Shown: in pieces, positions 1 to 35,170 of the stretch
Layout of the letters: each line of letters opens with the position of its first letter
How positions within the stretch are numbered: position 1 is the first letter of the stretch
Virus record (IMG/VR): IMGVR_UViG_3300017934_000004
Coordinates: 1-35,311 of that record
Reading direction: 5' to 3' (one strand)
Length of the DNA: 35,311 nt
Source of the DNA: a virus
Position numbers and translations under genes: made by a program
Notes under the pieces: generated by a model
Databases searched by the model: none
What the model was told of the DNA's origin: nothing
The model's input: only the letters and a program-made list of their open reading frames with translations

Positions 1-67
1 AACACGGCGCAGCGTGCCGTCGTTTTCGGCCGGGCGGCGGCACGTGGGGTGGCAGCCGCTACTAGTA
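1..67. repeat. Terminal direct repeat, copy 1 (contig closes on itself)
   Basis: nt 1..67 are base-for-base identical to 35245..35311. This implies a 35244-bp circular or terminally redundant genome. Confidence 0.9.
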
Positions 68-745
68 CCGCGCGGTGTTGGGGCTCTCGCTCCGCAATCA
101 CAGCAAATCGCGCAAATTGCTGCGACTGGTGCCTCGACTGCGGCCGGTATGCTGGTGGCGCTCGGTACAATCGGCGGGCCGGTCGGCGCGGCGATCGGTG
201 GCCTAATCTCGATCGGGCTGCTGGTGGCGAATCAATTCGGCGGCTGCGGTCAAACTTGTGTGGAGGCGACCAAAATCGCCGATCAAGTCGGCGCGCTGCT
301 CGATCAGATGTTGCAAACCTACCTCGCGGCGCCAGTGCATTATTATTCGATGCAGCAAGCGTATCTAACGCAATGGGATGCCGCATGGGCCGCGCTCGAA
401 AAGGCCTGCTCAAATCCGCAGCTCGGCGATGCCGGCGCGCGCTGTATTACCGATCGCCAGCGCGGGTCTTGCAAATGGCACACGTCGCCCGGCGGTTGGC
501 AACAGGCTAACGGCGTGTGGCAGTATATCGCGCCTGGTCCGGATGGTTCGGGCTCTACTTGCTGGAATTGGTTCGTCGGTTCTCGCGATCCGGTTGCGAA
601 CGATCCAACCGTTGTACCGGATCCGGCGAGCTCGGCCAGCTCGCCATTATCAGCCATCAGCTCCGCGGTTTCCGGTGTTAGCCCGGTTATTTTGATCGGC
701 GGCGCTCTGCTAGTCGGCGCTTGGCTTTTCATCGGAGATAACTAG
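14..745 (+). CDS. Membrane protein with RGVG leader motif, Cys-rich central domain and C-terminal anchor
   Basis: 243-aa ORF. RGVGA at 71..85. Hydrophobic helix LVALGTIGGPVGAAIGGLISIGLLV. Six Cys in the central part. C-terminal helix VILIGGALLVGAWLFIGDN just before the stop. Confidence 0.6.
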   Translation: MPSFSAGRRHVGWQPLLVPRGVGALAPQSQQIAQIAATGASTAAGMLVALGTIGGPVGAAIGGLISIGLLVANQFGGCGQTCVEATKIADQVGALLDQMLQTYLAAPVHYYSMQQAYLTQWDAAWAALEKACSNPQLGDAGARCITDRQRGSCKWHTSPGGWQQANGVWQYIAPGPDGSGSTCWNWFVGSRDPVANDPTVVPDPASSASSPLSAISSAVSGVSPVILIGGALLVGAWLFIGDN

Positions 746-746
746 C

Positions 747-1532
747 ATGGCCTACGTGAATATCACCAGGCCGAGCGGAGGATTGAATGGGCGAGGCCTG
801 GGCGCCATACCGCGGCCCGTTCAACGCCTGCGTGTTAAAAACATGCTGCCGCGCGGCCGCGGTATGGGTTATGCGATCAGCGCAGCGGCGCCTTACTTCA
901 CGCCGGATCCGCCAACTTTCGTCACGGTCACGCCGACGACCGGCGCGCTGCCTTTTCAAGTTGTCTCGACTGAAAGCTATCTGCAGCAAAATTTAGTCGG
1001 CCAAATGCAGAACAGCGCGCAGTACAACGGATGGACACTCGCGCAATGGATCGCGGCAATCACGGCCGACGCGCAGCAGCGATGCAGTTTTTATCCTGGG
1101 AGCTGCGGCAGCTCAACACCCGAGCAGCTCGGCCAAAAATACGGCACGCTCGCCTACCAGATAATGCAGCTCAAGGCTTCGCAGCAGCCGGCCAGCTCGC
1201 CGGCGCCGGTGCCTGTCACACCGTCAGGAAGTTTCGGACCTAACCCGACGCCTGGCGCGATCCCGCCGCAGGTTTCGAGCGGACCGGCAATCGGCGTATC
1301 CGTACCGACCTCGCCGGCTAGTCCGGCCGGCTCACCCGGCCAGGCGTCGATTCCGCTTGTGCCGTTTACGACGCCGGCGCAAACATCGGCGCCTACCGGT
1401 GTTGATTTCAGCTTTCTCACAAACCCGATTTCGCTTTTCGGTTACGGCGTGCCGCTTTGGATGCTACTTGCGGCTGGCGGCGCGGGTATCTATGCGCTCG
1501 CGAGCTCGGGCGGCGGAGGCCGGCACCGATGA
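747..1532 (+). CDS. Tail-anchored Pro/Ser/Thr-rich membrane protein (MAYV / RGMG leader family)
   Basis: ATG 1 nt after the upstream stop. N-terminus MAYV. RGLGA at 792..806 and RGMGY at 858..872. Long P/S/T/A linker. C-terminal helix plus GGGGRHR. Stop overlaps the next start (ATGA). Confidence 0.65.
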   Translation: MAYVNITRPSGGLNGRGLGAIPRPVQRLRVKNMLPRGRGMGYAISAAAPYFTPDPPTFVTVTPTTGALPFQVVSTESYLQQNLVGQMQNSAQYNGWTLAQWIAAITADAQQRCSFYPGSCGSSTPEQLGQKYGTLAYQIMQLKASQQPASSPAPVPVTPSGSFGPNPTPGAIPPQVSSGPAIGVSVPTSPASPAGSPGQASIPLVPFTTPAQTSAPTGVDFSFLTNPISLFGYGVPLWMLLAAGGAGIYALASSGGGGRHR

Positions 1533-2164
1533 ACAGCGCAATTAAAATCGGCTTGCTTGCCGGGGGCGCATGGCTGCTCTATGAATGGTGGCAGCAGCAG
1601 CAGCTTACCGCAGTACCCGGCTCGATTCCTAACGCGGCGTTGCCGGCGCCGACGCCTGGCCCGCTCGGTACGACGGTGAGCAGCTCGCCGGCACCGGCCG
1701 CGCAGGCGACGAACACAGCCGCAAATTCCGCGAGTCTGGCCGCGATCCGTTCGCAGTTGCAGGCACTCGCGATGGCGTACCTGGCGGCAAATCCATCGGC
1801 GACCGGGCTCGATGTTGACCAGTGGAACTATTATTACGCGCAAATCCGGGGCATATCCTTTCCCGGTGCTGCCGGCACTTTAATCCTCAACTCGCTCGGG
1901 ATTCCACTGACCGCGCCTGGCCGTTCGCAACCGGTTTCAATCGACCAGTGGATAAGCGCGGCTGCGGCCGCCGGGCTTAGTGGTTATCGGCGCGGCCTTG
2001 ATGCTGCAGCACCATTCCTGCAGCTCCGCAATCGCGCGAAAGTGATCCGGCTACCACTGACGACACCGGCAATCGCGGCCATTCGCCGCGGCGTGGCGGC
2101 GCGATCGCGAGCCGGGCAAAACTATCTGCCGAGCAATACGCCGATGGTAGGGGGTGCCGCGTAA
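1529..2164 (+). CDS. Membrane protein with N-terminal anchor
   Basis: ATGA overlap with the upstream stop. N-terminal helix IKIGLLAGGAWLLYEWW. Ala/Pro-rich remainder. The track ORF 1457..2164 is trimmed to the in-frame ATG. Confidence 0.6.
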   Translation: MNSAIKIGLLAGGAWLLYEWWQQQQLTAVPGSIPNAALPAPTPGPLGTTVSSSPAPAAQATNTAANSASLAAIRSQLQALAMAYLAANPSATGLDVDQWNYYYAQIRGISFPGAAGTLILNSLGIPLTAPGRSQPVSIDQWISAAAAAGLSGYRRGLDAAAPFLQLRNRAKVIRLPLTTPAIAAIRRGVAARSRAGQNYLPSNTPMVGGAA

Positions 2165-2472
2165 TGGCATTCGTGCGCCGGCGAGGGCGGGGCATGGGCG
2201 ACACAGCAGCTTGTCCCTCGCTCGCTCAACTCATGGGCGTAGTCGATGCAACGGACCCGTGCCAGCAACAATCGCAGATCCCAACTGAAACGACGTATCC
2301 GGTTCTCACGACCGCGCCGGCAAGCGGCGGGGTAACGCCAACGGGCGCGCCGGCGAGTGCCTCTGCTGGCCTGATGAGCTGGTTACAGACCAATCCGGCC
2401 GCAATGCTCGGCCTCGGCGCGGCGCTCTTAGTTGTCGTCGGCGGTGCGCTTCTGGGAGGGCGCCGGCGATGA
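2164..2472 (+). CDS. Small tail-anchored membrane protein (MAFV..RGMGD leader family)
   Basis: TAATG overlap. N-terminus MAFVRRRGRGMGD (motif at 2188..2202). C-terminal helix AAMLGLGAALLVVVGGALLGG followed by RRR. Confidence 0.65.
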   Translation: MAFVRRRGRGMGDTAACPSLAQLMGVVDATDPCQQQSQIPTETTYPVLTTAPASGGVTPTGAPASASAGLMSWLQTNPAAMLGLGAALLVVVGGALLGGRRR

Positions 2473-2714
2473 GTGATTTTAAACGGGCGCCACTTTCCAA
2501 TCTCGCCGCACGCCTGGCGCGAGCAAGTGTCGCGCAGTTTGCCGAGCACGTACGGGCTAATCCTGGCGTGATGGCCGCTTACGATGAACACGCCGCGCCG
2601 ATCGTCGAGGAAGCAATAAACCGAGTGCTACCGGGCGAGCCGTTGAGTTTGGTCGAAATCGCCGATCGCATCGGGATCCTGCCAAAACGAAGGGGGCGCC
2701 GTGCCCTACGTTAG
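2469..2714 (+). CDS. Small soluble hypothetical protein
   Basis: ATGA overlap with the upstream stop. 81 aa, helical-looking, basic C-terminal tail. No motif recognised. Confidence 0.45.
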   Translation: MSDFKRAPLSNLAARLARASVAQFAEHVRANPGVMAAYDEHAAPIVEEAINRVLPGEPLSLVEIADRIGILPKRRGRRALR

Positions 2715-3186
2715 CGCAGCAGTGCCGATGGGCCGGCCAATGATCGCGCCGGCGCGACCTGGCCCGCGCTTGGTGCGCAACCGCGGGCGCCGCGGCGTCG
2801 GCGACTACTTCAGCGAGAATTGTCTCGGGCCGGCATCGCTCGCGACCGTCTTAAACCCGTTCTGTTACCTGTACCCTGGCCGCAACCTTTCAGCGTCGGC
2901 GAGCAATATCATTTCGCCATATAATCCGCCGCCGCTGCCGACACCGATCGCGCAGCCGACGGCATACACGCCAACCGGGGCGGTTGATGTTGCCGGCAAT
3001 CCGGTTTACGACATCAGCTTTCAAACGCCGCAAGAAAACCAGGCGGCGAACGCTGCGCAGGCGCAGCAGTTTTTCACTAACCTCGCCGATCAAAACGCGG
3101 CCGGCAATCCGAGCAGCACGGCGATTTGGCTCATTGCCGGCGCCGTGTTGCTCGGCGGGCTCTGGCTTTTAGGGGGGCGGCAATAA
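2701..3186 (+). CDS. Tail-anchored membrane protein (MPYV..RGVGD leader family)
   Basis: GTG start about 6 nt after an aaggggg SD. N-terminus MPYV. RGVGD at 2791..2805. C-terminal helix AIWLIAGAVLLGGLWLLGGRQ. Confidence 0.6.
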   Translation: MPYVSAAVPMGRPMIAPARPGPRLVRNRGRRGVGDYFSENCLGPASLATVLNPFCYLYPGRNLSASASNIISPYNPPPLPTPIAQPTAYTPTGAVDVAGNPVYDISFQTPQENQAANAAQAQQFFTNLADQNAAGNPSSTAIWLIAGAVLLGGLWLLGGRQ

Positions 3187-3551
3187 TGGCGTACACGATG
3201 CGGCGCGGCATGGGCGATTACGATCAGGTGAAAAACTGGAGCTGGTTATATTATCCGCCTCCGTACGGTTTTGTAAATCCCGATCGGCCGCGGCCAAAGT
3301 CACCTGCGCAGTTCTACGCACCGGCGGCAACGATGGGGCTCGGGTGCGGCTGCGGCGGTACCTGTGGCGGTTGTAGCGCGCCTGGCGCGCCAGGCCTGGG
3401 AATGTTCGAGTCCGGGCTCGATATTTCGGGCTGGGGCCTTGGCGAGTGGCTTACGGTCGGCGCCGGCATCGCGATCGCCGCGGCCGCCTTCGGTAAGGGC
3501 AAGCGGACGGTGCGATCGCGTAAAGCGATGCGGCGCATTAGAGGTTTTTGA
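3186..3551 (+). CDS. Tail-anchored membrane protein (MAYT..RGMGD leader family), Gly/Cys-rich
   Basis: TAATG overlap. N-terminus MAYTMRRGMGD (3204..3218). GCGCGGTCGGC stretch. Helix WLTVGAGIAIAAAAF followed by a basic tail. Confidence 0.6.
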   Translation: MAYTMRRGMGDYDQVKNWSWLYYPPPYGFVNPDRPRPKSPAQFYAPAATMGLGCGCGGTCGGCSAPGAPGLGMFESGLDISGWGLGEWLTVGAGIAIAAAAFGKGKRTVRSRKAMRRIRGF

Positions 3552-3559
3552 GAAATACA

Positions 3560-4894
3560 ATGACGAGGCGGGCAACATCACAGAGGAAGGCGCGGGGCGG
3601 TACCGGATCCAACCGGCCGCACCTGCGCCGGAATCTGTGGCCGTTCTCGGCTTTTAAAACGAGTACGACTTATCACGTCAAGCGCAAGCGCGGTCCGACG
3701 ACTGCGGGCGCGGGCAGTTTCAAGGGGCACAGGATCGAGCGGCTGCCCGATGGCGGTTTTACTGTGCCGTCGCTCGATCGTGAAAGCGTTTTTGACGATA
3801 AGCGCCAGGCGAAGCGATTCATCACAGCGCAGACTAAGTACAACAATGCGGCTCGCAAGAATAGCCAGCCAGTGATGACATATCAACTCGCGCACGCCGC
3901 GGCGACCGATGCCGCCAATAAGGCGATGCGAAAAGCCGGCCGTACGTCCTGGAATAAGGCCGATTACAATGTAGCGGTCCGCACATTCAAAAAACTTTTC
4001 AAGGCCAATCCTGGTAAGCATGCTTTCGCCCGGTGTGTTGCGAAAGTTTCCCAACGGCCCGAGGTAGTGAGCCCTGCCGGCGTGTGCGCGGCAGCCGGCC
4101 GGAAAAAGTACGGTGCTAAAAAATTCGCAGCGATGGCTCGCGCCGGCAAGCGAGCGGCGGCCCGCAACCCTGGCCTGCGCATCGTCGCACTGAATGAATC
4201 CCGCTACAATCGCGACATCCGGCACCTGCTCCGCGATCCTAGCCAAACTTACGCGGAATACAGCCGGAATTATCCCGGCCGCATGTGGATGCTGTATCGC
4301 GGGTCGGAGTTCATCAGAACATCGGCATCAAAAGCTGAGCTCAAGGGCTACGGGCGGGAAAACTCCGGAAAGCAGAAAAACTGCGGCGCATTGCGTCAAC
4401 CTAAGCACAGCAATCCGGTCGAGGCCGCGAAAGAAGTTTACGAAAAATTCCATGGCCGGCCGGCTGCGAAAATCCTTAAGATCACCGAGCGGGTGCATGT
4501 ACACACGGCTTTATCGGGCATCGGTGATTTGAAGCGGCTCACTGTGCGTCACATAGGCGGCCGCAAAAAAACCGACCTCGATTTCGGGCCTGGGGCCGTG
4601 CTGGCACAAAATGAAAAACGGAATCAGCTTTTTATTCGGGGCGGCGACCAAAGCGTACCGCTCGCGGTTTTTGGAATTAAGCCGCCATACCATGAAAGCG
4701 AAATCCTCGGTGAGGTTCTCTCGGTTGACTACTTCACGCGCAAGGATCATCTGGCGCCCAAGGATGGAGGCACGGCGACATATCGCCATAAATTCGGCCG
4801 CAAAAAACCAACGCTGATCTATAGCGTGCCCGATAAGAAACTCAGCTTTGCCGGCGGCGGTTACACCATTCCGGATGAGGGGATCGACCTCTAG
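3560..4894 (+). CDS. Very basic 444-aa protein (possible nucleic-acid-binding or internal virion protein)
   Basis: Long ORF (track start TTG 3548, first ATG 3560). K/R-rich N-terminal two thirds. C-terminal globular part of about 160 aa. No catalytic motif recognised. Confidence 0.55.
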   Translation: MTRRATSQRKARGGTGSNRPHLRRNLWPFSAFKTSTTYHVKRKRGPTTAGAGSFKGHRIERLPDGGFTVPSLDRESVFDDKRQAKRFITAQTKYNNAARKNSQPVMTYQLAHAAATDAANKAMRKAGRTSWNKADYNVAVRTFKKLFKANPGKHAFARCVAKVSQRPEVVSPAGVCAAAGRKKYGAKKFAAMARAGKRAAARNPGLRIVALNESRYNRDIRHLLRDPSQTYAEYSRNYPGRMWMLYRGSEFIRTSASKAELKGYGRENSGKQKNCGALRQPKHSNPVEAAKEVYEKFHGRPAAKILKITERVHVHTALSGIGDLKRLTVRHIGGRKKTDLDFGPGAVLAQNEKRNQLFIRGGDQSVPLAVFGIKPPYHESEILGEVLSVDYFTRKDHLAPKDGGTATYRHKFGRKKPTLIYSVPDKKLSFAGGGYTIPDEGIDL

Positions 4895-7807: not shown

Positions 7808-8416
7808 ATGAAATCCACCGTGATAGCGGAAATGCTCGGGATCCTCGGCCGTGCCGAGGCTTCCCGAGCACGGAATGAGCTGCCGGCATTCGCGCAACTG
7901 CGGAGCACGCTCGCGGCCGCCTTTGCATTGGGTTTATACACAGACGCGGATCTTGATGTTTCTGTTTTCATTGACGCGCTAGAGCGAGCGCAGTCGGCGG
8001 CCGAGGTTATGATGCCGGCCGCCGCCATCCGCCAGAAGCTAGAGCCGCTCACGGAAGACGAGGCAACGGGTGCGACCGGTATCGAGCTGCAGACCTATCC
8101 GCCGGCGGTCGAAATCCTCCCGATGGCTCTGGCTGAAGCGCAACAGAGTGAGGCGCCGCCGGCGCCGGCCGCTTTGCCTGCGCACGTTATTAGCGTTCTC
8201 ATCGGTATTCTTGACGCGATCGATGAGGCGCAAACATTGGACGACGTAGCGAGGGGCGTCGCCGTGGCACGTCAGTTTTTACACGATGCCGCGGGCACCA
8301 GTGGAATCCGTAAACCCGAGGCGCCGGCGGCCGATCAAACCGCGCCGGCGGAAACCGACCAGGCCGAAGGCGCATCGGCGCCCGAAGTCGAGGCCGAAAA
8401 CGCAGGGGGTAATTAG
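7808..8416 (+). CDS. Acidic Ala/Glu/Asp-rich helical protein (scaffold-like by position and composition)
   Basis: In-frame ATG at 7808 of track ORF 7664..8416. 202 aa, strongly acidic. Lies directly upstream of the basic membrane protein and the capsid-like gene. Confidence 0.5.
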   Translation: MKSTVIAEMLGILGRAEASRARNELPAFAQLRSTLAAAFALGLYTDADLDVSVFIDALERAQSAAEVMMPAAAIRQKLEPLTEDEATGATGIELQTYPPAVEILPMALAEAQQSEAPPAPAALPAHVISVLIGILDAIDEAQTLDDVARGVAVARQFLHDAAGTSGIRKPEAPAADQTAPAETDQAEGASAPEVEAENAGGN

Positions 8417-9249
8417 TGGCAGTTGCGACACGTACGACCATCATCCCTAACCGCGGGCGACGCCGGCCCGCGGTTAGGCCGATCTCGCCGCACAGGAAAC
8501 GTGCGGGGGCAAAGCGGGCGAAAAATCCATCCGATGTGATCGGATGGACTATGAACAAGGGCCGAAAGTCGGCACAGAAAGGGCGAGGTTTTACAATGGC
8601 ACAGAAATCGAAAAAGAAAAAGAAATCCGCGGCCGGCGCGCGGCCTGTCATCATCATGCGGGCGAACACCGGCAAGAAGCAAAACCGGAAAAACGCCGGC
8701 CACCACAAGCATCATCACGCGATGAAGCACAACAGAGGCCGGCATCATCATGTTCGCCATAATATCGGCGGCGGACGGATGCGCGGAGTGAGCGACCTGG
8801 TGATTAACGGTGTTTTCGTGATCGCCGGCGCGTTGGGCTCGAAACTCATCGCGCAAATGGTGCTCGGTGCCAACAACACAGGCATTATGGGGTACGGCGT
8901 GAGTCTCCTCGCCGGCACTGCGCTTTGGTTTGCAACCGACAAGCTCTTGAAGAATCCCGCGGCCTCGGCCGGCGTGATCTCGGGAACGATCGTGCAAATC
9001 ATCATCCGTCTGCTCAACGACTACACGCCTTTCGGCACGTACGTTGCGAGCCTTGGCATGGGTGACTACCAGGCGCAGGCGTTCCTTACGCCTCAAATCC
9101 TGGTCGATCCGTACAAAAACTCCACTATCAAATTTCCCGCGGCTCTCATGCCGCCGGCGCCTAGCGCGCCGCCGCCGTCGAAAACCATGCCGGCGTCGGT
9201 GGGCGTGAGCGGGTTTGATCCGCTCTATGGTGGCCGCAGCATTTACTAA
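8416..9249 (+). CDS. Basic His/Lys-rich protein with hydrophobic C-terminal half
   Basis: TAGTG overlap (alternative ATGs at 8551 and 8596). KKKKK and HHKHHH..GRHHHVRH tracts. 2-3 hydrophobic helices. LGMGD at 9052..9066. Confidence 0.55.
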   Translation: MAVATRTTIIPNRGRRRPAVRPISPHRKRAGAKRAKNPSDVIGWTMNKGRKSAQKGRGFTMAQKSKKKKKSAAGARPVIIMRANTGKKQNRKNAGHHKHHHAMKHNRGRHHHVRHNIGGGRMRGVSDLVINGVFVIAGALGSKLIAQMVLGANNTGIMGYGVSLLAGTALWFATDKLLKNPAASAGVISGTIVQIIIRLLNDYTPFGTYVASLGMGDYQAQAFLTPQILVDPYKNSTIKFPAALMPPAPSAPPPSKTMPASVGVSGFDPLYGGRSIY

Positions 9250-9307: not shown

Positions 9308-10057
9308 ATGCACGCGAAACAATTCGATTTCCGTAAACGGCCAACCCTCGAACAGTTGGCCGCGTGGCTTGAAACGCACACGATTGGAGGCGGGGCCTAT
9401 GGCCCCAATCCCAATCAGAACCCCAGCGGCCAGATTCTCGACGCGACCGAGGCGCAGGGCCGCAACACGAACTCGATCATGGAGGGCTGGGTCGATCGTG
9501 GTCCCTGGCAGTACTGGGATACGATTCCATTTATCGCCGGCGCGCAGGTAGCACAAAGCTACTCGCCGTTTTCGGTGCCGATCGGCCAACAGGATCCGAT
9601 CACGAACACCACGAAAACCAAACTGCAGACCAACCTGCAGCGTGGCAACCAATTCCCGCCGCCGAAATGCCTGCTGCTCATGGCAATCGGCTTTTACTTC
9701 GATCCGACCTGGGCGCTTTCCGATATCCAGGCAGTTTTGAACGCATGCTATATGCAGTTCAAAATCGACGACAAGATTTTCCACGAGGGTTTTCTGTGGG
9801 ACTTCCCGCCGGGCGGTGCGATCACCGGCTTTACGCAAAACTCGGGCGATTCGACTTTCACGCTCGGACTGCCGGCGCCGCAGTACCAACGCCGGTATGG
9901 TGATTGGGCGAAGTACATCGCGCCGATTCAGCAATTCTCGATGGACCTGATTTTCGGCGGTGGCGGCGTCGCCATCCCGACGGTAGGCGTCGCCGAGGGG
10001 CCGAATAACTACCTCATCGTGCAGCTCGACGGCCTGACCGATCGGTCGGTACAGTAG
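9308..10057 (+). CDS. Putative major capsid-like beta-sandwich (jelly-roll-like) protein
   Basis: Strong SD aagggag 8 nt upstream. 249 aa, beta-rich. Followed by an 8-bp stem-loop. Has a shorter paralog at 26847..27398. The capsid role is inferred from position, expression signals and strand pattern only. Confidence 0.55.
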   Translation: MHAKQFDFRKRPTLEQLAAWLETHTIGGGAYGPNPNQNPSGQILDATEAQGRNTNSIMEGWVDRGPWQYWDTIPFIAGAQVAQSYSPFSVPIGQQDPITNTTKTKLQTNLQRGNQFPPPKCLLLMAIGFYFDPTWALSDIQAVLNACYMQFKIDDKIFHEGFLWDFPPGGAITGFTQNSGDSTFTLGLPAPQYQRRYGDWAKYIAPIQQFSMDLIFGGGGVAIPTVGVAEGPNNYLIVQLDGLTDRSVQ

Positions 10058-10186: not shown

Positions 10187-10810
10187 ATGTACTTGCTGAG
10201 CTCGGATTCCTGCTCTCATCCGAACAGTGCGACGCCGATCCCACAAACGGCGATCGACGCGCAAAATGTGCGGATCGCGCGCGTCGGGCATCATTTCAAT
10301 CGCGGCAATGCGGCGATAGATGCGATCATGGCGGCGCTCACGCCGCCGGTTGCTAGTCCGTCCTGTGGCGACCTGCAAAATAGCGATGGTTTAATCGCCG
10401 GCTCTCCGTTCCCAAATCCTGGCGGCGGCCCGGCGCCAACAGTCGAAATCATGAGCGCGTCACAGCTCGCCGCCTGGTACAAGTCATGGAGCGCGAGCTC
10501 GGCCGCTGCGGCGGCTGCAGCGAATTACGGCTCAATCCCTATGCCGATCGTGGGCGGTCCTTCTGCCGGTATCTCGCGCTTACCGCGGGGCGTGCGGCCG
10601 GCCAGGTGGGGCCGTTGGGCGCCGCCTGGCGTGTCGGCCCAGTGCCAGGATCCCGAAGTTTTGCCGGTCGCGACCGTCTCACGGCCGGCGAATGGCAGTG
10701 GTACGCAAAACGCTGCGGCGCCGCAGGCCTCGGTCATGCAGCCGTGGCAGTGGCTGGCGCTCGCAGCTCTCGCGGGTTTGGGTTTGTATCAGGTTTCAAC
10801 GCAAAGGTAG
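10187..10810 (+). CDS. Tail-anchored membrane protein
   Basis: ggagg SD 6 nt upstream of the ATG. Ala/Pro/Ser-rich. C-terminal helix WQWLALAALAGLGLY followed by QVSTQR. Confidence 0.6.
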   Translation: MYLLSSDSCSHPNSATPIPQTAIDAQNVRIARVGHHFNRGNAAIDAIMAALTPPVASPSCGDLQNSDGLIAGSPFPNPGGGPAPTVEIMSASQLAAWYKSWSASSAAAAAAANYGSIPMPIVGGPSAGISRLPRGVRPARWGRWAPPGVSAQCQDPEVLPVATVSRPANGSGTQNAAAPQASVMQPWQWLALAALAGLGLYQVSTQR

Positions 10811-11188: not shown

Positions 11189-12315
11189 CCGAAATAGTAG
11201 ATTCCTTCGGCCTGTACGTGCTTACCTCGGTGAGCCCTGGCGCGAGCCAGAACTCGCTTACCACGTTTTGGAATGCGATCGGGCCTGGTGGTTTCACTAT
11301 GGGCGTGCAGGCTGGCGCCGGCGACCGTGGCAATCCGGCGCTTTATCTTCCGTTCGGCGCCGCGATTTGCAAAACAGTTTCGCATCAGCCGACATACACG
11401 CTCGGCCTCCGCGTTTCAATGAGCTGCGTCGCCGGCGTCGGCGGCGGATCTTCTTTTCTTCAGTTCTGCAACTGCGGTTTCGCGCTCTGCTCTCTCCGCG
11501 TGAACCCCGATGGCTCGATTCTGGTCTACGGAAACAATGTCGGTAGCACTGTGATTTTCACGGCGCCGGCGGGCACCTTGACGGCGGCGACGCAAACCTA
11601 TCTCGAATTGACGGCGACCGTCACGGCCGATGTGCTCGGCGACATGAGCGTAACGGCCGAGGCTTGGGTCAACTCAGTTTCGATCGGCAGCGGATCCGCT
11701 GCGCTCGGCCGGAACATCAGCACGCTCAAAAATGCGGCTGCGAATTTCAACCAGATTTTCATTTTTTCCGGCGTCGCGACGAACGGCCAGGCGTTTGTGT
11801 CCGACCTGTACCTAAACAATGGGCAAGGGCCGACGAACACCGGCCGGCTCTCGCTTTTGCCGCCGAATAATACGGCGCCGTTTGTGATCGTTGAGCCGCT
11901 TGTACCTAACGCTGACACATCGCCGCTCAATTGGACGCCGCTCGCGCCTGGCCCGCACTTCAGCGAGATCAACGAGGTTCCCGCCGACGGCGATGCGTCT
12001 TACAACTTCGCGGCGGCCGCGGCAGCCGGCACGATCGACAATTACCGCTGGCAGCCGATCTCTACTTTTGTAGGAACCGTGCAATCGGTGCAGCTCCGCT
12101 ATCAGGCGCGCTCGACCGCGGCCGGTCCGGCCGGCTATCGTTCGACTGTAGGAATCGGCGGGATCGAGGCGACGGGACAAAAAGCCGGGCTCTGTAGTTC
12201 CTATACTTACCAGGGCTCGCAGACATTCGACCTTGATCCGCGTACCGGGCTGCCCTGGGCACAGCCGAATTTTAACTTGAAACCGTTCGGCGTCGAAGTG
12301 GTGGCACTGCCATGA
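11185..12315 (+). CDS. Fibre/spike-like protein, LamG/concanavalin-like N-terminal domain (inferred)
   Basis: ATGA overlap at both ends. 376 aa, beta-rich, Gly/Asn/Thr-rich. Composition is typical of phage receptor-binding proteins. No direct motif proof. Confidence 0.5.
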   Translation: MTEIVDSFGLYVLTSVSPGASQNSLTTFWNAIGPGGFTMGVQAGAGDRGNPALYLPFGAAICKTVSHQPTYTLGLRVSMSCVAGVGGGSSFLQFCNCGFALCSLRVNPDGSILVYGNNVGSTVIFTAPAGTLTAATQTYLELTATVTADVLGDMSVTAEAWVNSVSIGSGSAALGRNISTLKNAAANFNQIFIFSGVATNGQAFVSDLYLNNGQGPTNTGRLSLLPPNNTAPFVIVEPLVPNADTSPLNWTPLAPGPHFSEINEVPADGDASYNFAAAAAAGTIDNYRWQPISTFVGTVQSVQLRYQARSTAAGPAGYRSTVGIGGIEATGQKAGLCSSYTYQGSQTFDLDPRTGLPWAQPNFNLKPFGVEVVALP

Positions 12316-13955
12316 GCCTGCTGTACGACGACGATTTCCAGAGCTATGCAGTCGGCGCATTCCCGCCTTATGGAAACCTGTTTAATATCGCGATTATTGC
12401 GCCGAAGATCGCAAACAGTGTCCCGCCTGGTGGCGTTTTTGGTGCCGCCAAGTACGTTAACATGGCCTCGCTGCCGAGCCTCATCTGGCCGACGACGACA
12501 CCTTCGACGGCACTACCGGCTTACTCTGAATTTTCCGTTTTCCAGCACGTGCTCATCCTGGGCGGCCAGGGGAGCGATGAACAGGGCGCGATTTTGCAGT
12601 TCAATTGCAACCTAAGCCCATTCGCAGGCATAAGCCTCGCTGCGCTGCGCGTTCTCTCCGATGGAACTCTCGCATTTACGGCACCGCAGAGCTCGGCCTT
12701 TTCTCCGAATCAGTTTGTTTCAAACGATTCGATTCTGGTCAATGCCTGGTACTCGATCCAGACCAACGTTCGGTTTTTCGCGGCCGGTGCATTCGTCGGC
12801 GTCGATGTCGAGGTAGCGATCAATAACAAGTCGGTTTTTGCCGGCAGTTTCGTGACCACTCAAACGGTGGCATCGCTGCCGGCCCTATTCGTAAACAATC
12901 TAATTTTCGGTGGACTCGGCGGCGGCTGCGCTTATGGCCGTATCACCGTTTCTGATACAATCCTCCCGATCGGCGCCGATCCCCATGCCGGCACACCCGA
13001 CGTGCGTGTGACGCAAGGCGCGATCGAGCTCATACTCGCGGCGTCTGGTGGCCTGCCGGTGCCAGTGTGCCCTATCGGTGGCGGTAACGCGACGGTCGGG
13101 CAACTCTACAACAAGACATTGACCGCAAGCGGCGGCATTCCGCCTTACACCTGGAATGTAACCGGCCTGCCGCCCGGCATCACATTCAATCCGGTAAGCG
13201 GGCAATTGCTCGGGATCCCGACCACGCCAGGCACGTTTACATACCTGGCGACGGTTACCGACCTGGCGACGGCGATGGGCTCGGTTAACTGCACGATTGT
13301 AGTCGTCGCCTCGCTCACCGTCGATATTCAGTTTTGGGGCGTGCTCCGTTTCCTGGTGCCGGTTGGATCTGGCGACGGCGACGCCGCTGAGTATTCGGCG
13401 ATCGGGCGCCAGGCATTACGCAGCCTGGCCGCGATCGCGCTTAGGGCGGCCTCAGTGCTGCTCGACCAGTTGGCGCGCACCCTGGCGCCGGCGAGCTCAG
13501 GGCGCCGCCTGCAGCTCGCCGCGTCGCCGGCGTCGGCCGTTAAAATTCCGATCCCTATGCCGGCCGCTCTGGAAACTGCAGCGGATAAGTGCAACTTGCG
13601 ACCGTTTGTGCAACCGGTTGCACAAACGACGCGAGAAACAAATGAGTTAGGTATATCCTTAACACTATCATCGCCTCGCATTCGCTTTTCTGGCGGTTTC
13701 AGTTTTTCTTGGCGGCCATTCGTGCAACCGGTTGCACAAACGACGCGAGAAACAAATGAGTTAGGTATTCCCTTAACACTATCATCGCCTCGCATTCGCT
13801 TTTCTGGCGGTTTCAGCTTTTCTTGGCGGCCATTCGTGCAACCGGTTGCACAAACGACGCTAGAAACAAACGGCTTAGGTATTTTACCCTGCCATTTGGC
13901 AGGGGCTCATAAAACGCCGACGTTTTTAGGGGAGGGTATCAGTGGCGCAGCTTAG
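12312..13955 (+). CDS. Fibre/spike-like protein with Ig-like (He_PIG-type) domain; 3' third reads through a 114-bp repeat array
   Basis: Residues 248-332 (13053..13307), containing GQLYNKTLTASGGIPPYTWNVTGLPPGITFNPVSGQLLGIPTTPGTFTY, match the putative Ig domain consensus. VDIQFWGVLRF at 13320..13352. No stop until 13953. GC3 falls from about 75 to about 38 percent inside the repeats, so the real C-terminus is uncertain. Confidence 0.55.
   Translation: MSLLYDDDFQSYAVGAFPPYGNLFNIAIIAPKIANSVPPGGVFGAAKYVNMASLPSLIWPTTTPSTALPAYSEFSVFQHVLILGGQGSDEQGAILQFNCNLSPFAGISLAALRVLSDGTLAFTAPQSSAFSPNQFVSNDSILVNAWYSIQTNVRFFAAGAFVGVDVEVAINNKSVFAGSFVTTQTVASLPALFVNNLIFGGLGGGCAYGRITVSDTILPIGADPHAGTPDVRVTQGAIELILAASGGLPVPVCPIGGGNATVGQLYNKTLTASGGIPPYTWNVTGLPPGITFNPVSGQLLGIPTTPGTFTYLATVTDLATAMGSVNCTIVVVASLTVDIQFWGVLRFLVPVGSGDGDAAEYSAIGRQALRSLAAIALRAASVLLDQLARTLAPASSGRRLQLAASPASAVKIPIPMPAALETAADKCNLRPFVQPVAQTTRETNELGISLTLSSPRIRFSGGFSFSWRPFVQPVAQTTRETNELGIPLTLSSPRIRFSGGFSFSWRPFVQPVAQTTLETNGLGILPCHLAGAHKTPTFLGEGISGAA
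13594..13885. repeat. Tandem repeat, 114-bp unit, about 2.6 copies
   Basis: Units 13608..13721 and 13722..13835 are 111/114 identical. A third partial unit starts at 13836. Each begins with the palindrome GTGCAACCGGTTGCAC. Confidence 0.9.
13608..13851. promoter_or_regulatory. Three copies of the 16-bp palindrome GTGCAACCGGTTGCAC, 114 bp apart
   Basis: Exact copies at 13608..13623, 13722..13737 and 13836..13851, upstream of the gene starting at 13942. Confidence 0.7.
13887..13926 (+). other. Two short hairpins between the repeat array and the 13942 start
   Basis: ccctgcc-attt-ggcaggg (13887..13904) and aaaacg-ccga-cgtttt (13911..13926), followed by a ggagg SD. Confidence 0.4.
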
Positions 13956-15779: not shown

Positions 15780-15781
15780 CA

Positions 15782-19506: not shown

Positions 19507-20121
19507 ATGAACCTTGCCGCCATCAGGCCGCGCCGGCAAATGCCGCACCCGGTACTTTACGCGCCGCGGCGCCGCGGCGGCCTGGCCGGCTACGGCCTAG
19601 GCGTCGTGCAAGTGCTTGCACCGTCGCAAACGGCTACGATCGCGAGCACGATTCAGCAAGTCGAGGGCTACTATCCTGGCTCGCTCGCGTATCAGAATAA
19701 CAACCCTGGAAACCTGGTCTACGTCGGCCAGACAGGGGCCTCGCCCGGCGCCGGCGGGTTTGCGCAATTCCCGAGCTACTCGGCCGGCCTGCAGGCGCTC
19801 GACGATCAGATACAACTCTATGCCGCCCGCGGCATGACGATTTCTCAAATGATGAACACGTACGCGCCGGCCTCGGCCGGCAATAATCCGACAGCGTACG
19901 CGAACCAAATCGCCGGCGCGCTCGGTGTGGATCCATCAACCTCGCTGCTCGACCTGGCTGGGTTTTCGACCAGCTCGCCGGCGCCGCTGCCTGCCCTGCC
20001 CGATGTCTCGACGTGGGCGAGCTGGCTACCGGACTTTTCGAGTATCGACCCGTCGAGCCTGGCAATGATCGCCGGCGGCCTGCTGCTCGGAATTGTTGTG
20101 CTCAACGTCACCGGCGACTAG
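19507..20121 (+). CDS. Tail-anchored protein with NNNPGN motif domain (possible cell-wall-active or virion-associated protein)
   Basis: In-frame ATG at 19507. Basic leader ..RRRGGLAGYGLGV. YQNNNPGNLVY..GFAQFPSYSAGLQAL..YAP..NNPTAYANQIA. C-terminal helix LAMIAGGLLLGIVVL. Confidence 0.55.
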   Translation: MNLAAIRPRRQMPHPVLYAPRRRGGLAGYGLGVVQVLAPSQTATIASTIQQVEGYYPGSLAYQNNNPGNLVYVGQTGASPGAGGFAQFPSYSAGLQALDDQIQLYAARGMTISQMMNTYAPASAGNNPTAYANQIAGALGVDPSTSLLDLAGFSTSSPAPLPALPDVSTWASWLPDFSSIDPSSLAMIAGGLLLGIVVLNVTGD

Positions 20122-28563: not shown

Positions 28564-29637
28564 ATGAACGCACCCGCCCAACAAACCGGCCAATTTTTTT
28601 ACGTTCCAAACTCACTCACCGAAAACCAGATGTTTTTGACTCATGCCGAGCTGGCAATGGCCCTGATCGTGTTGAGGCGATCCCACAGCAACAAGGGCGG
28701 GGCGGTACCGGTGAGTGATGAAAACTGGAAAAACTGGACCGGCCTCAGTATTCGGCAAAAAAAATATGCTGTCGCCGGCCTTGAAAAAAAAGGCCTACGC
28801 ATCGAGGGCCGCGGCGATCGCGCGCGTTACGCCTGGCAGTTCGATATGTGGGAATCGTACGCGCGGCAAACGGCGATCGAGCAGCGCGCGAAAACCGAGG
28901 GCCGGAAACCCGCGCCAGTGCCGGCGAAAAAGGGCGCAATGGTACATCCGGAATGCGCTGCCGGCTGCGCGATGCTACAACAGACACCGGCGAAACTTGT
29001 GCTGCTACCGGCCGGCCAAATTGAACAGGCTTGGCCTGAAACCCTCAGTACGATCCGGCAAGCGTTCCCGCCGGTCACTGGCGCATTTCTGGCGCGCCTG
29101 GTCGGCGTAGTGAAAGCCTCGATCGGCACCGTAACCGATGCCGAGCTCGCGCACGCGGTCACCATCGCGTACAAACGGCAGCAGCGTAGCGAGGGCCTAT
29201 TTCTCGACACGGTGCCCGAGGCGCTCGCCGCGCTTCGGCGCGTGAAGGCAAAGCCGGTACTGCCGGCAGCCGGCGACGTGGATCCGGCCGCGATCGAGCA
29301 GCGCATCGGCGAAGTGCTCACGATTCTATCAGCCGACAACTGGGCCTCGGCCGCGCTCTGCGCCGATCTCGAAAAACTGCGCGATCGCGTGAAGTCTACC
29401 GAGCTGCAGCAGCTCGATGACGAAATGAACGCGCTCGAAAAGCGGATTATCAATGCGGCACATGATGCGATCGCCGAGCCACAACGCGAGAAAATCCGGC
29501 AGCGTGTCGCCGGCCAGATGAAATCCTACGCCGGCAAAATGTCGCCCGCGCAGCTCGACCAGCTCGCGCACACCATGCTAGAGCGCGAGCTCTTGCAGTA
29601 CTTCGACGTGCCGCGGCTCGGGGTCTTCTATGTGTGA
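28564..29637 (+). CDS. Putative replication initiator / winged-helix DNA-binding protein
   Basis: N-terminal FFYVPNSL..LTHAELAMALIVLRR..WTGLSIRQKKYAVAGLEKKGLRIEG resembles phage/plasmid replisome-organiser wHTH N-termini. Lies directly downstream of the iteron/AT-rich region. The function is inferred. Confidence 0.5.
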   Translation: MNAPAQQTGQFFYVPNSLTENQMFLTHAELAMALIVLRRSHSNKGGAVPVSDENWKNWTGLSIRQKKYAVAGLEKKGLRIEGRGDRARYAWQFDMWESYARQTAIEQRAKTEGRKPAPVPAKKGAMVHPECAAGCAMLQQTPAKLVLLPAGQIEQAWPETLSTIRQAFPPVTGAFLARLVGVVKASIGTVTDAELAHAVTIAYKRQQRSEGLFLDTVPEALAALRRVKAKPVLPAAGDVDPAAIEQRIGEVLTILSADNWASAALCADLEKLRDRVKSTELQQLDDEMNALEKRIINAAHDAIAEPQREKIRQRVAGQMKSYAGKMSPAQLDQLAHTMLERELLQYFDVPRLGVFYV

Positions 29638-30242: not shown

Positions 30243-30270
30243 CATTTTCTGGTGAGAGGAATTCGCAACA

Positions 30271-31091: not shown

Positions 31092-31598
31092 TCACTTAGG
31101 GCTCGGAAGGCTGCCAGCTCGCATGGATTTTGTTTCGCGAGCTTGGCCAAGGCCCGCTGGCGGCCGCGGATCCGGATGAAAGTTTGCGACCGCCGCCTCT
31201 AACACTCGCACGCGAGAATACAGCGCGCGTATCGTGCGCTGGTCGGCGGCAAGCAACTCAGCCAGGCTCACTACTTGTTTGGCGAGCGAGGCGCCGGCGG
31301 CCGGCAGCTCATCGCGCATCACAAACCCGGCGGCGCGTAATGTGCCTATCTGCGTCGTCGATCCGGTTTTAGTTTCGGCAGCGACAAGTTTCCGAACCAG
31401 CTTTTCGAGTTTGATCCTTAGCGGTCCGAATGCCGAGCCGTGCCGCCCGTATTCGTTCTTGCAAGCGGTCGTACAAAACATGCGGTTCGGTTTAGTGACT
31501 GGAAATTTTTTATCGCAATTCCGGCAGCATTTCCGCTTGTACCGGATCGGTTCGGGCGGCGCTGTGACGGCCTGTGGCGATTCGAGGGATACGTTCAT
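31092..31598 (-). CDS. Zinc-ribbon plus coiled-coil protein
   Basis: CRNCDKKF..(10 aa)..FCTTAC four-Cys motif near the N-terminus, with a helical C-terminal half. Confidence 0.55.
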   Translation of the reverse strand: MNVSLESPQAVTAPPEPIRYKRKCCRNCDKKFPVTKPNRMFCTTACKNEYGRHGSAFGPLRIKLEKLVRKLVAAETKTGSTTQIGTLRAAGFVMRDELPAAGASLAKQVVSLAELLAADQRTIRALYSRVRVLEAAVANFHPDPRPPAGLGQARETKSMRAGSLPSPK

Positions 31599-33869: not shown

Positions 33870-35141
33870 ATGTTGCAAGACATCGAACCAACTGCCGGCA
33901 ATCGGCTCTATGACGTGAGCGCACCAGCGGCCACGGCGCCGGCCGATAGTGCGCCCGCGCGGCGCCTGGCGATCGTGCCGAAGGATCCACAGAGCACGAA
34001 ACCGCCGGTAGCTGGCGCGCGCATGGAGCGGCGCACCGTTCCCGATGATGACGACCAGGCGACGGCCGAAACCATATCAATGATGTGCGACTACATCCGG
34101 GCCGGCGTAAAGGATCCGCTCTGCGTCGCGTGGGCCGAGTGGGCTCTCGATTGTTTCGGTATGGGCGTTGATGACGCCCGCGCGAAATTTTGGGCCGTGT
34201 TCTGGTGTTTGAAACATGCGGTGAAGTACCGACGCGATGAGCCCGAGCTGTTCCGAATCGGCGAACGCAGTGCGCGTGATTTGCTAACCGCGCCGAGTGT
34301 GTTAGTGCGGCAAGCGGCGCCGGCCGAGGATTGCGACGGTTTTACGATGCTCGCATGCACACTGCTGCAGATCCTCGGTGTGCCGGCATTCATTGTCACG
34401 GCGAAAGTGGATCCGGGTGAGCCTGGCCGCTGGTCACATGTATTCGCGATGGCCGATGTTGCCGGTGTCGGATTGTGTTCGCTGGATGGTTCGCACGGCA
34501 AGGCGCCCGGCTGGATGGTTCCGCGATCGCACATTTTCGGTTACCAGGTTTGGGATCTTAATGGCCGCCCGATTCATAAAAAATTGCCCGTCGTGCAGCC
34601 GCGGCTGCAGGGTTACGAATATCGGCCGCGAGGCATGGGCGCGCAGCCTGGTGCGGTTCGCCGGCGCCGCGGCGTGGGCGATACCTGCGCGGTGGATCCT
34701 ACGACGGGCGTACTGTCGGATCTCACGACGGGCCTACCGTGCGGAACGAGCACCGGCCCGCTTTCTGCGCTGCCATCATCGGGCGTTTGCGTCAATGGTT
34801 TTGATACCGGCTCTGGCGATCCGTGCCTCGCGCCGACGGGCCCGCCAGCCGTAATCACTCCGATCGCCGGCACGCCAGCACCGAATCCGGCGAATGTTCC
34901 GACTGCAACGCCGAGCACACTACAGTCTATTATCAATAATCTTTTTGGTGCGGGCACCAAGATCGCCACCATCGCGACGGCGCCGGCCGGATCCACTATT
35001 TCGCCGACGGGCGCCGTCACGATCGGCGGCGCGCCGCTCATGGCTTCACTCGGGAATCTGCTGCCCTGGCTGCTGGTTGGCGGAGTGATTCTTTTTGCCG
35101 TGAATGCGGCGAGCAGCGCACCAAGTCGAGGGCGGCACTAG
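33870..35141 (+). CDS. Membrane-anchored transglutaminase-like (papain-fold) cysteine peptidase
   Basis: EDCDGFTMLACTLLQILGVPAFIV .. RWSHVFAM .. SLDGS fits the Cys-His-Asp transglutaminase-core pattern. RGMGA (34629..34643) and RGVGD (34668..34682) follow the domain. Gly/Pro/Thr-rich linker. C-terminal helix LPWLLVGGVILFAV. Confidence 0.65.
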   Translation: MLQDIEPTAGNRLYDVSAPAATAPADSAPARRLAIVPKDPQSTKPPVAGARMERRTVPDDDDQATAETISMMCDYIRAGVKDPLCVAWAEWALDCFGMGVDDARAKFWAVFWCLKHAVKYRRDEPELFRIGERSARDLLTAPSVLVRQAAPAEDCDGFTMLACTLLQILGVPAFIVTAKVDPGEPGRWSHVFAMADVAGVGLCSLDGSHGKAPGWMVPRSHIFGYQVWDLNGRPIHKKLPVVQPRLQGYEYRPRGMGAQPGAVRRRRGVGDTCAVDPTTGVLSDLTTGLPCGTSTGPLSALPSSGVCVNGFDTGSGDPCLAPTGPPAVITPIAGTPAPNPANVPTATPSTLQSIINNLFGAGTKIATIATAPAGSTISPTGAVTIGGAPLMASLGNLLPWLLVGGVILFAVNAASSAPSRGRH

Positions 35142-35170
35142 TGTACGTCAGCTCCGCAAATGCGCTGCCG

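Follow-up and report, generated by a model that had tools for sequence, protein, structure and literature searches.

A G-Φ-G motif marks the membrane-anchored proteins of an undescribed group of bacterial viruses and is a tentative processing site of their transglutaminase-fold enzyme

The DNA analysed here, positions 1 to 35,311 of the IMG/VR virus record IMGVR_UViG_3300017934_000004 (35,311 bases, below 'the window'), carries an operon of membrane-protein genes that runs across the point where the two ends of the window meet. The first 67 nt are repeated exactly at the other end (1-67 = 35245-35311), and this terminal overlap indicates that the genome is a closed circle of 35,244 bp. Its G+C content is about 60%. 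An earlier note on the same DNA had pointed to a basic N-terminal leader ending in a G-x-G site, common to otherwise divergent membrane proteins. The shared signal was borne out, and its conservation extends over a very large number of related genomes: it is a real, strongly conserved, position-specific short linear motif with the core G-Φ-G (Φ, hydrophobic residue), which marks a set of anchored proteins. We tentatively regard it as the cleavage site of an enzyme encoded by the first gene of the operon.

The motif-bearing genes all lie on the plus strand. The first gene of the operon (33870..35141) encodes a 423-residue membrane-anchored enzyme with a predicted transglutaminase fold, called a peptidase in the earlier note; we keep this name for brevity. 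The segment encoding its catalytic core (34326..34496) is followed by a linker with two copies of the motif (YRPRGMGA and RRRRGVGD, 34620..34682; RGMGA at 34629-34643, RGVGD at 34668-34682) and by a C-terminal helix (35058-35114). The next gene, termed the junction gene, occupies 35141..35311 and continues at 2..745 (35245-35311 duplicates 1-67). Its start had been placed at position 14, which was wrong: the reading frame runs upstream on the circle to a GTG codon at 35141, which overlaps the peptidase stop codon (TAGTG). The product, MYVSSANALP..., has a 62-residue leader ending in PRGVGA (VPRGVGA, 65-85; RGVGA, 71-85), a Gly-rich hydrophobic region in the centre (140-226) and a C-terminal helix (677-733). 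P0185, a protein from independent gene calling in a public collection, is the same as the junction product over all 282 residues.

The run continues with g747 (747..1532), which starts with MAYV, carries GRGLGA (789-806; RGLGA at 792-806) and GRGMGY (855-872; RGMGY at 858-872) and has a Pro/Ser/Thr-rich middle. Its C-terminus consists of a weak hydrophobic stretch (1449-1502) and the tail GGGGRHR. The hydrophobic helix of g1529 (1529..2164) is N-terminal (1538-1591), and near the C-terminus there are two degenerate motif-like sequences, YRRGLDA (1985-2005) and IRRGVAA (2081-2101). Its relatives in other genomes (loci designated by L numbers) have a clear motif, either at the C-terminal end (...MYARGMGR... 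in L008; ...IPHGVGA-stop in L012) or just before the N-terminal helix (MASGGMGD in L009). In g2164 (2164..2472) the motif is compact (MAFVRRRGRGMGD, 2164-2202; RGMGD at 2188-2202) and is followed by a Cys pair, a C-terminal helix (2398-2454) and the tail GGRRR; orthologues in L012, L015 and L021 retain the motif together with CPS..DPCQ. The product of g2469 (2469..2714), an 81-residue soluble protein, lies within the module and has no motif in this genome. Its homologues contain an internal W-x-x-G-L-G-[DE]-Φ-V (L009 4412-4657, L012 10976-11242, L013 4152-4349, L016 12088-12321). The MPYV start of g2701 (2701..3186) opens a 34-residue Arg/Pro leader with RGRRGVGD (2782-2805; RGVGD at 2791-2805), and the protein ends with a helix (3121-3177) and the tail RQ. 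The last gene of the run, g3186 (3186..3551), encodes MAYTMRRGMGD (3186-3218; RGMGD at 3204-3218), a conserved WSWLYYPPPYGF, a weak hydrophobic stretch (3447-3494) and a long basic tail. It also has a Cys cluster, GCGCGGTCGGC (3342-3374), which in relatives reads GCGCGG(S/T)CGGCGG and adjoins a conserved W-x-W-x-YYPPPY(D/G)F; the cluster may be a metal site.

The motif also occurs outside the run. The product of g8416 (8416..9249) has a very basic N-terminal third and at least two hydrophobic segments, followed by YVASLGMGDY (9040-9069; LGMGD at 9052-9066) and a C-terminal tail. This sequence, as YV[AS]xLGMGDY after the hydrophobic segments, is retained in the majority of the relatives inspected, namely L001, L002, L004, L009, L012 and L014-L016. 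The basic leader of g19507 (19507..20121) ends with RRRGGLAGYGLGV (19567-19605, including GYGLGV), its C-terminal helix is at 20059-20115, and its lytic-transglycosylase-like domain matches PHROG 2276 (E 7e-19) and PHROG 873 (E 1e-16). The earlier note had also listed g10187 (10187..10810). This protein starts with MYLL, has no G-Φ-G in its N-terminal part and only a weak C-terminal hydrophobic stretch (10745-10795), which makes it a doubtful member of the set.

Apart from the junction start, the positions given earlier for the motif copies are all right in the translations, and so are the four N-termini MAYVNIT, MAFVRRR, MPYVSAA and MAYTMRR, each with a G-rich ribosome-binding site upstream of the start. 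With the true junction start at GTG 35141, five adjacent genes, not four, share the N-terminus M-(x)-[YF]-[VT], and all five are preceded by such a ribosome-binding site. The codons of the shared Val vary (GTC, GTG, GTT), which places the conservation at the protein level; a nucleotide-level explanation of MAYV is ruled out by the varied synonymous codons and by the location of the ribosome-binding sites upstream.

In the annotated proteome of the genome (~10,200 residues) RG[MVLI]G occurs 8 times, against 1.15 +/- 1.1 expected from 2000 composition-preserving shuffles (largest shuffle value, 8), a sevenfold enrichment. The 8 copies are confined to six contiguous genes that span the junction (33870 to 3551). 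The motif could in principle be a by-product of a G+C-rich genome, with its frequent Gly and Arg codons, combined with mis-called start codons: G+C is about 60%, and G-Φ-G alone is not enriched proteome-wide (28 observed, 19 +/- 4 expected). Such an origin is vanishingly improbable, however, in view of the enrichment and clustering of RG-Φ-G, its position-specific link to C-terminal anchors and the agreement of independent gene callers on the motif N-termini in relatives, and it is refuted by conservation in hundreds of divergent homologues.

Eight proteins had been described as ending in a hydrophobic helix followed by basic residues. When a mean Kyte-Doolittle hydropathy of 1.6 or more over 19 residues is required, the helix is clear in five of them (junction protein, g2164, g2701, g19507 and peptidase); in g747, g3186 and g10187 the hydrophobic stretch is only short and rich in Gly/Ala. 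Basic tails are present in g747, g2164, g3186 and the peptidase, those of g2701 and g10187 contain a single Arg, and those of the junction protein (GDN) and g19507 (D) are not basic. In many loci the tail after the helix has the form G-G-[KR]-[KRH] (LLGGRRR, LLGGRQ, GGGGRHR, LLGGRH, MGGKH; in the window at 2440-2472, 3160-3186 and 1503-1532), a second recurrent feature of the same set of anchored proteins. A single helix within about 30 residues of the C-terminus and no signal peptide, as in tail-anchored proteins, is clearly seen in g2164, g2701, g19507 and the peptidase. A tail-anchored topology with the N-terminus inside is uncertain: by the positive-inside rule, the basic residues after the helix and the Cys-rich N-terminal parts would, if anything, fit the opposite orientation. 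The leaders have net charges of +2 to +11, and the 40 residues that follow them are neutral or acidic in most proteins, g747 excepted.

The leaders were compared with known signals by regular expressions (AxA, [ST]RRxFLK, L-x-x-C, G|FTLIE) and hydropathy. None contains a Sec (signal peptidase I), Tat, lipobox or type IV prepilin pattern; the best 10-residue hydropathy is low and there is no hydrophobic core. At the C-termini no sortase or exosortase signature was found (no LPXTG, no PEP), and Gly-Gly comes after the helix, not before it. The motif thus matches none of the described lipobox, prepilin, Tat, LPXTG and PEP-CTERM signal types. The C-termini do resemble those of substrates of the LPXTG, PEP-CTERM/exosortase and GlyGly-CTERM/rhombosortase systems, in which unrelated proteins likewise end with a hydrophobic helix and a basic cluster; the difference is that here no signature precedes the helix and the conserved motif is at the opposite end.

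These observations bear on the idea that the motif is an unconventional topogenic or export signal, which would yield type-I-like proteins with the N-terminal part outside and the basic tail in the cytoplasm. By the positive-inside rule, the basic residues that immediately follow the helix (GGRRR, GGRQ, GGKK) agree with a C-terminus in the cytoplasm. Cys pairs and Pro/Ser/Thr abound in the sequences beyond the motif, a glycosyltransferase-methyltransferase-glycosyltransferase cluster is encoded within the same module, and proteins without Sec, Tat or lipoprotein signal would need another route. On the other hand, internal and C-terminal copies (peptidase, g8416, g1529 family) make little sense in an export signal, the motif has no hydrophobic core, strongly basic leaders disfavour N-terminal translocation, and no candidate translocase is evident. 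We consider an export function unlikely.

The relatives belong to a large, coherent, undescribed and uncultured group of bacterial viruses, whose contigs stem from peat, soil and wetland samples. Its most conserved protein, the product of g9308, has 312 homologues in the protein collection and retrieved seven IMG/VR loci, four of them long contigs of 33-44 kb. The peptidase has 64 close homologues, typically on 31-44-kb contigs, and a profile search extended this number to 2559 cluster representatives (E <= 0.001). Gene order is kept in relatives: the peptidase and junction genes are followed by a series of genes for small anchored proteins, then by those for a basic protein of 300-450 residues and a basic membrane protein, and finally by g9308. 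In some of them a DUF192 (PF02643) gene, which the window does not have, stands among the motif-bearing membrane-protein genes (L012 8364-8822; contig of P0029). tblastn searches of 50,697 GenBank phage records with g9308 and the peptidase gave no match, and no description of the virus group or of the motif was found in the literature. A scan of genome contigs for a host yielded only two viral-sized contigs in metagenome-assembled genomes (Phycisphaerales and Terriglobia), which are probably binned viral genomes.

Conservation of the motif in related genomes was confirmed on two families. In 61 of the 64 peptidase homologues R-(x)-G-Φ-G-[DQE] stands at the same place, between catalytic domain and C-terminal helix, and remoter family members retrieved with the profile still carry the motif. 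The junction protein has 267 homologues, and G-Φ-G is kept in 107 of the 120 listed; among these 120 the sequence that precedes the motif cannot be aligned and is between 3 (MRPGLGQV) and about 80 residues long, while in the family G-Φ-G keeps a roughly constant short distance (~10 residues) from the conserved core. Around the peptidase site, the frequency of Arg in the four residues before the first Gly rises toward the Gly (37%, 50%, 64% and 87%), Met, Val, Leu, Phe or Ile stands between the two Gly residues, and the second Gly is followed by Asp (57%), Gln (23%) or Glu (7%). Two or three tandem copies within a leader occur in g747, the peptidase, L008 15067 and L015 12425.

The relatives also clarify the form of the motif. 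In L008, whose peptidase is ~36% identical, independently called downstream genes begin with MYVRGLGQ, MYIRGMGQ and MYIRKRGRGFGQ, and further ones with MYLRGVGH..RRRGVGQ, MSYQRGLGQ and MLRRGVGSYQ. L013, the most distant genome of the close set, has the starts MYTRSGLGG, MAYRRAGLGD, MYSRGLGA and MYGGLGAS. A deep clade, L024-L029, has of the peptidase only the catalytic core in common with the window (29-41% identity), but it also has the junction and basic proteins; genes of this clade start with MSLVGMGQ, MLMGMGQY, MSMMGLGQ, MGLGQY, MLIGMGQT, MSILGLGD, MGLIGLGD and MLMPRGLGL. In many relatives the whole motif thus makes up the first 6-8 residues (MYVRGLGQ, MSLVGMGQ, MGLGQY), so that there is perhaps almost no leader. 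As relatives carry the motif compactly as the N-terminus, the MAYV and RRGMGD sequences of the window, described earlier as the two ends of a leader, together form a single motif, [YF]-Φ-(R)n-G-Φ-G-[DQE], whose halves Arg/Pro-rich insertions have separated in this genome.

Nor is the Arg-rich stretch a general feature: the starts in L024-L029, with hydrophobic residues before G-Φ-G, indicate that Arg is not universal, whereas Φ-x-G-Φ-G-[DQ] is. This bears on a possible nucleic-acid-binding role of the RG type, in which Arg/Gly leaders would bind the genome and link it to the membrane of a virion assembled without a packaging motor. The positive charge of the leaders, the lack of a terminase or recognisable P-loop ATPase gene and the presence of other very basic proteins (g3548 and g8416) would agree with such a role. 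However, the invariant part is G-Φ-G with Asp or Gln, not Arg, which a whole clade lacks (MSLVGMGQ), and the hydrophobic residue between the glycines is, to our knowledge, not a feature of RGG boxes. Nucleic-acid binding is therefore a highly improbable explanation of the motif.

The association with anchored proteins was assessed on a crude gene set, collected without regard to the motif from 23 non-redundant genome loci. G-Φ-G-[DQE] was present in the first 80 residues of 40 of 110 proteins with a C-terminal helix (36%) and of 13 of 514 others (3%), an enrichment with Fisher p = 1e-22; the densities were 4.6 and 0.35 per 1000 residues.

Copies of the motif within one genome change together. 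In a hand-transcribed table of these genomes, which are phylogenetically related, and after removal of one evidently spurious open reading frame (ORF), the residue after G-Φ-G agreed with the majority of its genome in 37 of 39 copies (permutation p = 6e-5). The genome type also matches the peptidase's own site: Asp in the window, L009 and L016 (D-type), Gln in L007/L019, L008, L012, L015, L018, L020 and L023 (Q-type), and Glu in L014 only, where it is also found in two leaders. Since both deep clades hold D-type and Q-type genomes, the switch must have happened more than once, in several unrelated proteins together. The residue before the first Gly shifts between clades from Arg to hydrophobic. 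The junction protein departs from the pattern, as it mostly has Ala after G-Φ-G irrespective of genome type. Concerted change in unrelated proteins of the same genome, as read from these sequences, argues for one common reader of all motif copies of a genome.

A candidate for the reader is the peptidase. Cys155 (EDCDGF), His190 (SHVF) and Asp206 (SLDGSH) are invariant columns in the alignment of the 64 homologues, with the order and spacing of the transglutaminase-superfamily triad. Gly268 and Gly270 of the motif in the linker are invariant alongside them. In the AlphaFold2 (AF2) model, core residues 50-243 have a predicted local distance difference test score (pLDDT) above 90, the region containing the motif (244-271) is below 50 and disordered, and a C-terminal helix follows. 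Foldseek related the core with probability 1.0 to 3kd4, 4xz7, 3isr, 9crn, 4u65 and 6g4h (E 4e-5 to 5e-3); the neighbours include the putative cysteine proteases 3kd4 and 3isr, a transglutaminase (4xz7), TglA, TgpA and LapG (4u65), and, more weakly, arylamine N-acetyltransferases and the pseudomurein isopeptidase PeiP. By its modelled papain/transglutaminase-like fold the core is thus placed in the transglutaminase-like superfamily. At the sequence level the window enzyme had no match to Pfam Transglut_core (PF01841), which 11 of the 64 homologues match weakly (best E 6.7e-4), and a search of PDB sequences with the peptidase profile gave 0 matches.

True transglutaminases and arylamine N-acetyltransferases, with the same Cys-His-Asp triad, are among these neighbours, which raises the possibility that the motif is a tag for a reaction other than hydrolysis, either transamidation and cross-linking or acyl transfer to the N-terminal region. 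The Gln that follows G-Φ-G in many genomes would suit this idea. A conserved Lys partner is not seen, though, and Gln is out as a general acyl donor, since in many genomes and proteins the same position holds Asp, Glu, Ala, Ser or Gly; we regard a non-hydrolytic reaction as very unlikely.

The architecture of the enzyme is the same as that of the motif-bearing proteins: a linker joins the soluble part to a C-terminal helix, and a basic tail follows. From this we infer that enzyme and motifs would be on the same side of the same membrane, whichever way the helices are oriented. In the model that we favour, tentatively and at less than an even chance, the motif is a cleavage site of this co-encoded, membrane-anchored Cys-His-Asp enzyme. 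As a short linear recognition signal it would mark membrane-anchored, probably virion, proteins; the enzyme, first in the operon and built like its putative substrates, would read it on the shared membrane face. A cut at or beside G-Φ-G would remove the variable Arg/Pro-rich leaders, from 1 to ~80 residues long, would free the catalytic domain of the enzyme from its anchor and would clip the C-terminal tail of the basic membrane protein g8416. Such cuts may amount to a maturation step comparable to those of adenovirus or T4. The enzyme as the reader, hydrolysis as the form of reading, the bond cut and the virion status of the proteins are all inferred elements of this model.

Several features favour processing. 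The motif stands at the boundary between a hypervariable leader and a conserved protein, like a propeptide boundary. It is Gly-based and followed by small or polar residues, as are many sites of viral cysteine proteases. Tandem copies are found in several leaders, the enzyme has the motif where cleavage would release its own catalytic domain, and the copies within a genome drift together. Processing also agrees with the change from basic leaders to mostly neutral or acidic sequence, and with the putative cysteine proteases among the structural neighbours of the enzyme, of which LapG offers an instructive precedent. Other observations weigh against it. Many relatives would lose only 4-7 residues (MSLVGMG|Q, MGLG|Q), which would be odd for a propeptide, and conservation of the Y-V half even 50 residues from G-Φ-G is hard to square with a discarded leader. 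The g8416 copy stays Asp in Q-type genomes, and the short peptidases of the distant clade have no motif site of their own. The AF2 model leaves the enzyme's motif outside the active site, a result that is uninformative more than negative, as the region is disordered. Hydrolysis at the motif is a prediction from sequence and fold, and as the fold is common to transglutaminases, N-acetyltransferases and isopeptidases such as PeiP, the enzyme could be an entry or lysis enzyme unrelated to the motif.

The main alternative is that the motif is an uncleaved docking or targeting peptide, comparable to encapsulin cargo-loading peptides or to the T4 capsid-targeting sequence in its targeting role, which would bind a pocket on the jelly-roll capsid candidate, a scaffold or an assembly factor. 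It would thereby sort the anchored proteins, both enzymes included, into the virion membrane and tie the membrane to the shell. In many genomes the motif is a compact unit of about eight residues at the extreme N-terminus, Y-V and G-Φ-G-D/Q are both kept when they are apart, and internal copies (peptidase, g8416) as well as those near C-termini (g1529 family) are always in flexible regions. Concerted change of the flanking residues fits any single binding partner, and tandem copies would give multivalent binding. A precedent is IPIII of T4, whose first 10 residues suffice for incorporation into the head (PMC9026906). Docking does not explain, however, why in one clade the motif is preceded by long Arg/Pro-rich extensions of variable sequence, nor why it stands on the border between unalignable and conserved sequence, and the partner that it would bind is hypothetical. 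Moreover, a Gly-x-Gly core with small or polar P1'-like residues is commoner in cysteine-protease sites than in docking peptides. On balance docking, though doubtful, is the strongest of the alternatives, and processing remains the reading that we prefer; most likely the motif is the tag through which either a viral enzyme or the capsid recognises its carriers.

By sequence the motif falls into no known signal class. The closest by analogy appear to be the propeptides and targeting sequences of virion proteins, with which it shares a short conserved N-terminal peptide on unrelated proteins of a structural module. The capsid-targeting sequence (CTS) of T4 acts on soluble proteins inside an HK97-fold head, and the T4 protease gp21 is a serine protease that cuts after L/I-x-E. 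The likeness to the T4 system is the short N-terminal peptide common to otherwise unrelated proteins, there of the virion; the carriers here are membrane-anchored, the motif is based on G-Φ-G, the candidate enzyme has a transglutaminase fold and cleavage is putative. In T4 the shared peptide of the internal proteins ends at a protease site (PMC9026906).

The adenovirus protease AVP, a cysteine protease, cuts (M/I/L)XGX-G and (M/I/L)XGG-X in pVI, pVII, pVIII, pX/Mu, pIIIa and pTP, often at two sites per precursor and in basic DNA-associated segments (PMC7998265). Small Gly-containing sites, several to a protein, are common to both systems, and MYIRGMGQ and MYLRGVGH formally fit ΦXGX-G. In the viruses studied here P4 is usually Arg or variable, not M/I/L, the substrates are anchored in a membrane and the putative host is a bacterium. 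Assignment to an adenain-type family is out, as P4 is not hydrophobic in most copies and the fold is transglutaminase-like, not that of clan CE. LapG, a transglutaminase-like protease, cuts between Ala108 and Ala109 near the N-terminus of its substrate, and the site is conserved in adhesins encoded beside LapG homologues (PMC3032545). The BTLCP protease LapG, a calcium-dependent enzyme acting on LapA, resembles the present enzyme in superfamily by fold (4u65), in having a membrane-associated substrate and in the small-residue site. LapG differs in being periplasmic, cellular and regulated by cyclic-di-GMP, with one giant adhesin as substrate and a di-alanine site; as the conserved site here is G-Φ-G, not A-A, we do not assign the enzyme to the BTLCP/LapG type. 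Encapsulin cargo-loading peptides are short, Gly- and hydrophobic-rich peptides on unrelated cargo that dock inside the shell uncleaved. They are usually C-terminal and serve soluble cargo of an HK97-fold shell, unlike the motif described here.

Pfam and PHROGs recognised little in the rest of the genome. They identified one methyltransferase and two glycosyltransferases (4897-7465), a serine recombinase encoded on the minus strand (26248-26850), an HNH nuclease, an O-like replication protein, a protein with a DnaA-C-like helix-turn-helix and a He_PIG Ig domain. Among the leader proteins and the peptidase only the transglycosylase domain of g19507 had a match. No tRNA and no Rfam family was found in the window, and 29640-31090 contains no convincing gene. 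The glycosyltransferase cluster (GT4-like glycosyltransferase, methyltransferase, GT2 glycosyltransferase) lies in the middle of the structural module and is kept in relatives. Its presence, and the Pro/Ser/Thr-rich linkers in the anchored proteins, suggest that virion proteins are glycosylated. Proteins of the g3548 family (window, 4852-4894; L008, L009, L012-L016) end with a conserved GGGY-x-[IL]-P-x-EGI-[DR]-[GL]-stop, as does a second, shorter protein of L008, and this C-terminus may, to judge from its sequence, be another short docking peptide. The products of 10814-11188 (124 residues) and, in its N-terminal third, 13942-14937 (331 residues) are paralogues (DAVLDACGR..PPGY.(F/W)VDLP); unannotated proteins nearby (14934-17642) may be further capsid or vertex components.

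The 16-nt sequence GTGCAACCGGTTGCAC, a perfect palindrome, is present in six copies where 0 are expected. Three of them mark the starts of the units in a 114-nt tandem repeat (13608-13883; 2.4 copies with 95% identity) in the 3' end of the ORF 12312..13955; the other three, 22-25 nt apart, are intergenic (28181-28243), upstream of the O-like replication gene (28564..29637). The palindrome resembles an operator or iteron at which a dimeric DNA-binding protein would act. A 70-nt direct repeat in two adjacent copies (77% identity, 30950-31089) is non-coding and lies beside the gene 31092..31598 (minus strand).

No terminase, portal, HK97-fold or double-jelly-roll capsid protein or ATPase was detected by Pfam or PHROGs across the genome. 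There is no convincing Walker-A sequence or recognisable P-loop ATPase, the sole Walker-A pattern inside a real gene being that of the HNH protein. As in portogloboviruses, virion assembly may require no packaging motor. The product of g9308 (9308..10057, plus strand) was modelled with a single jelly-roll-like fold (AF2 pLDDT 79.5). Its Foldseek neighbours, all of them weak, were, in the PDB, tomato aspermy virus, SPV1, satellite panicum mosaic virus and P23-77 VP17 (E 0.03 or worse) and, in BFVD, capsids of CRESS viruses (~1e-3), and we propose it with low confidence as a jelly-roll capsid protein candidate. Two very basic proteins are encoded by g3548 (3548..4894) and g8416 (8416..9249).

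With its dozen small membrane proteins, its lytic transglycosylase anchored in the membrane and its jelly-roll capsid candidate, the genome is reminiscent of PRD1, PM2 and SPV1. We know of no sorting motif shared by the membrane proteins of these viruses. The genome of SPV1 is, as here, a dsDNA circle that encodes basic candidates for DNA binding but no packaging ATPase (PMC8459092). There is no sequence match and no significant structural match to these viruses, however, and the portoglobovirus likeness is an analogy drawn from genes alone.

The core genes of the group match no Pfam or PHROG family and no GenBank phage. In its widest form, the proposal would be a new sorting and maturation system, in which a transglutaminase-fold enzyme tethered to the membrane reads a universal tag the size of an octapeptide (M-x-Φ-x-G-Φ-G-D/Q, also in expanded forms), so that virion membrane proteins are selected and processed, in a group, of family rank or above, of portoglobovirus-like bacterial viruses with a jelly-roll shell, a membrane, a core of basic proteins and DNA and no packaging ATPase. 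Taken in its entirety, this proposal is rather unlikely to hold. How membrane viruses choose their own proteins from the host membrane is an open question even for PRD1 and PM2, and a transplantable tag on all anchored virion proteins, if true, would make this choice directly testable. It would also provide a sequence handle on the virion membrane proteome of an abundant undescribed group, to judge from the number of enzyme cluster representatives. If the enzyme is a maturation protease, it would represent a new protease family in viral maturation, and virions like those of portogloboviruses, if that is what they are, would extend to viruses of soil bacteria an architecture so far confined to hyperthermophilic archaea.

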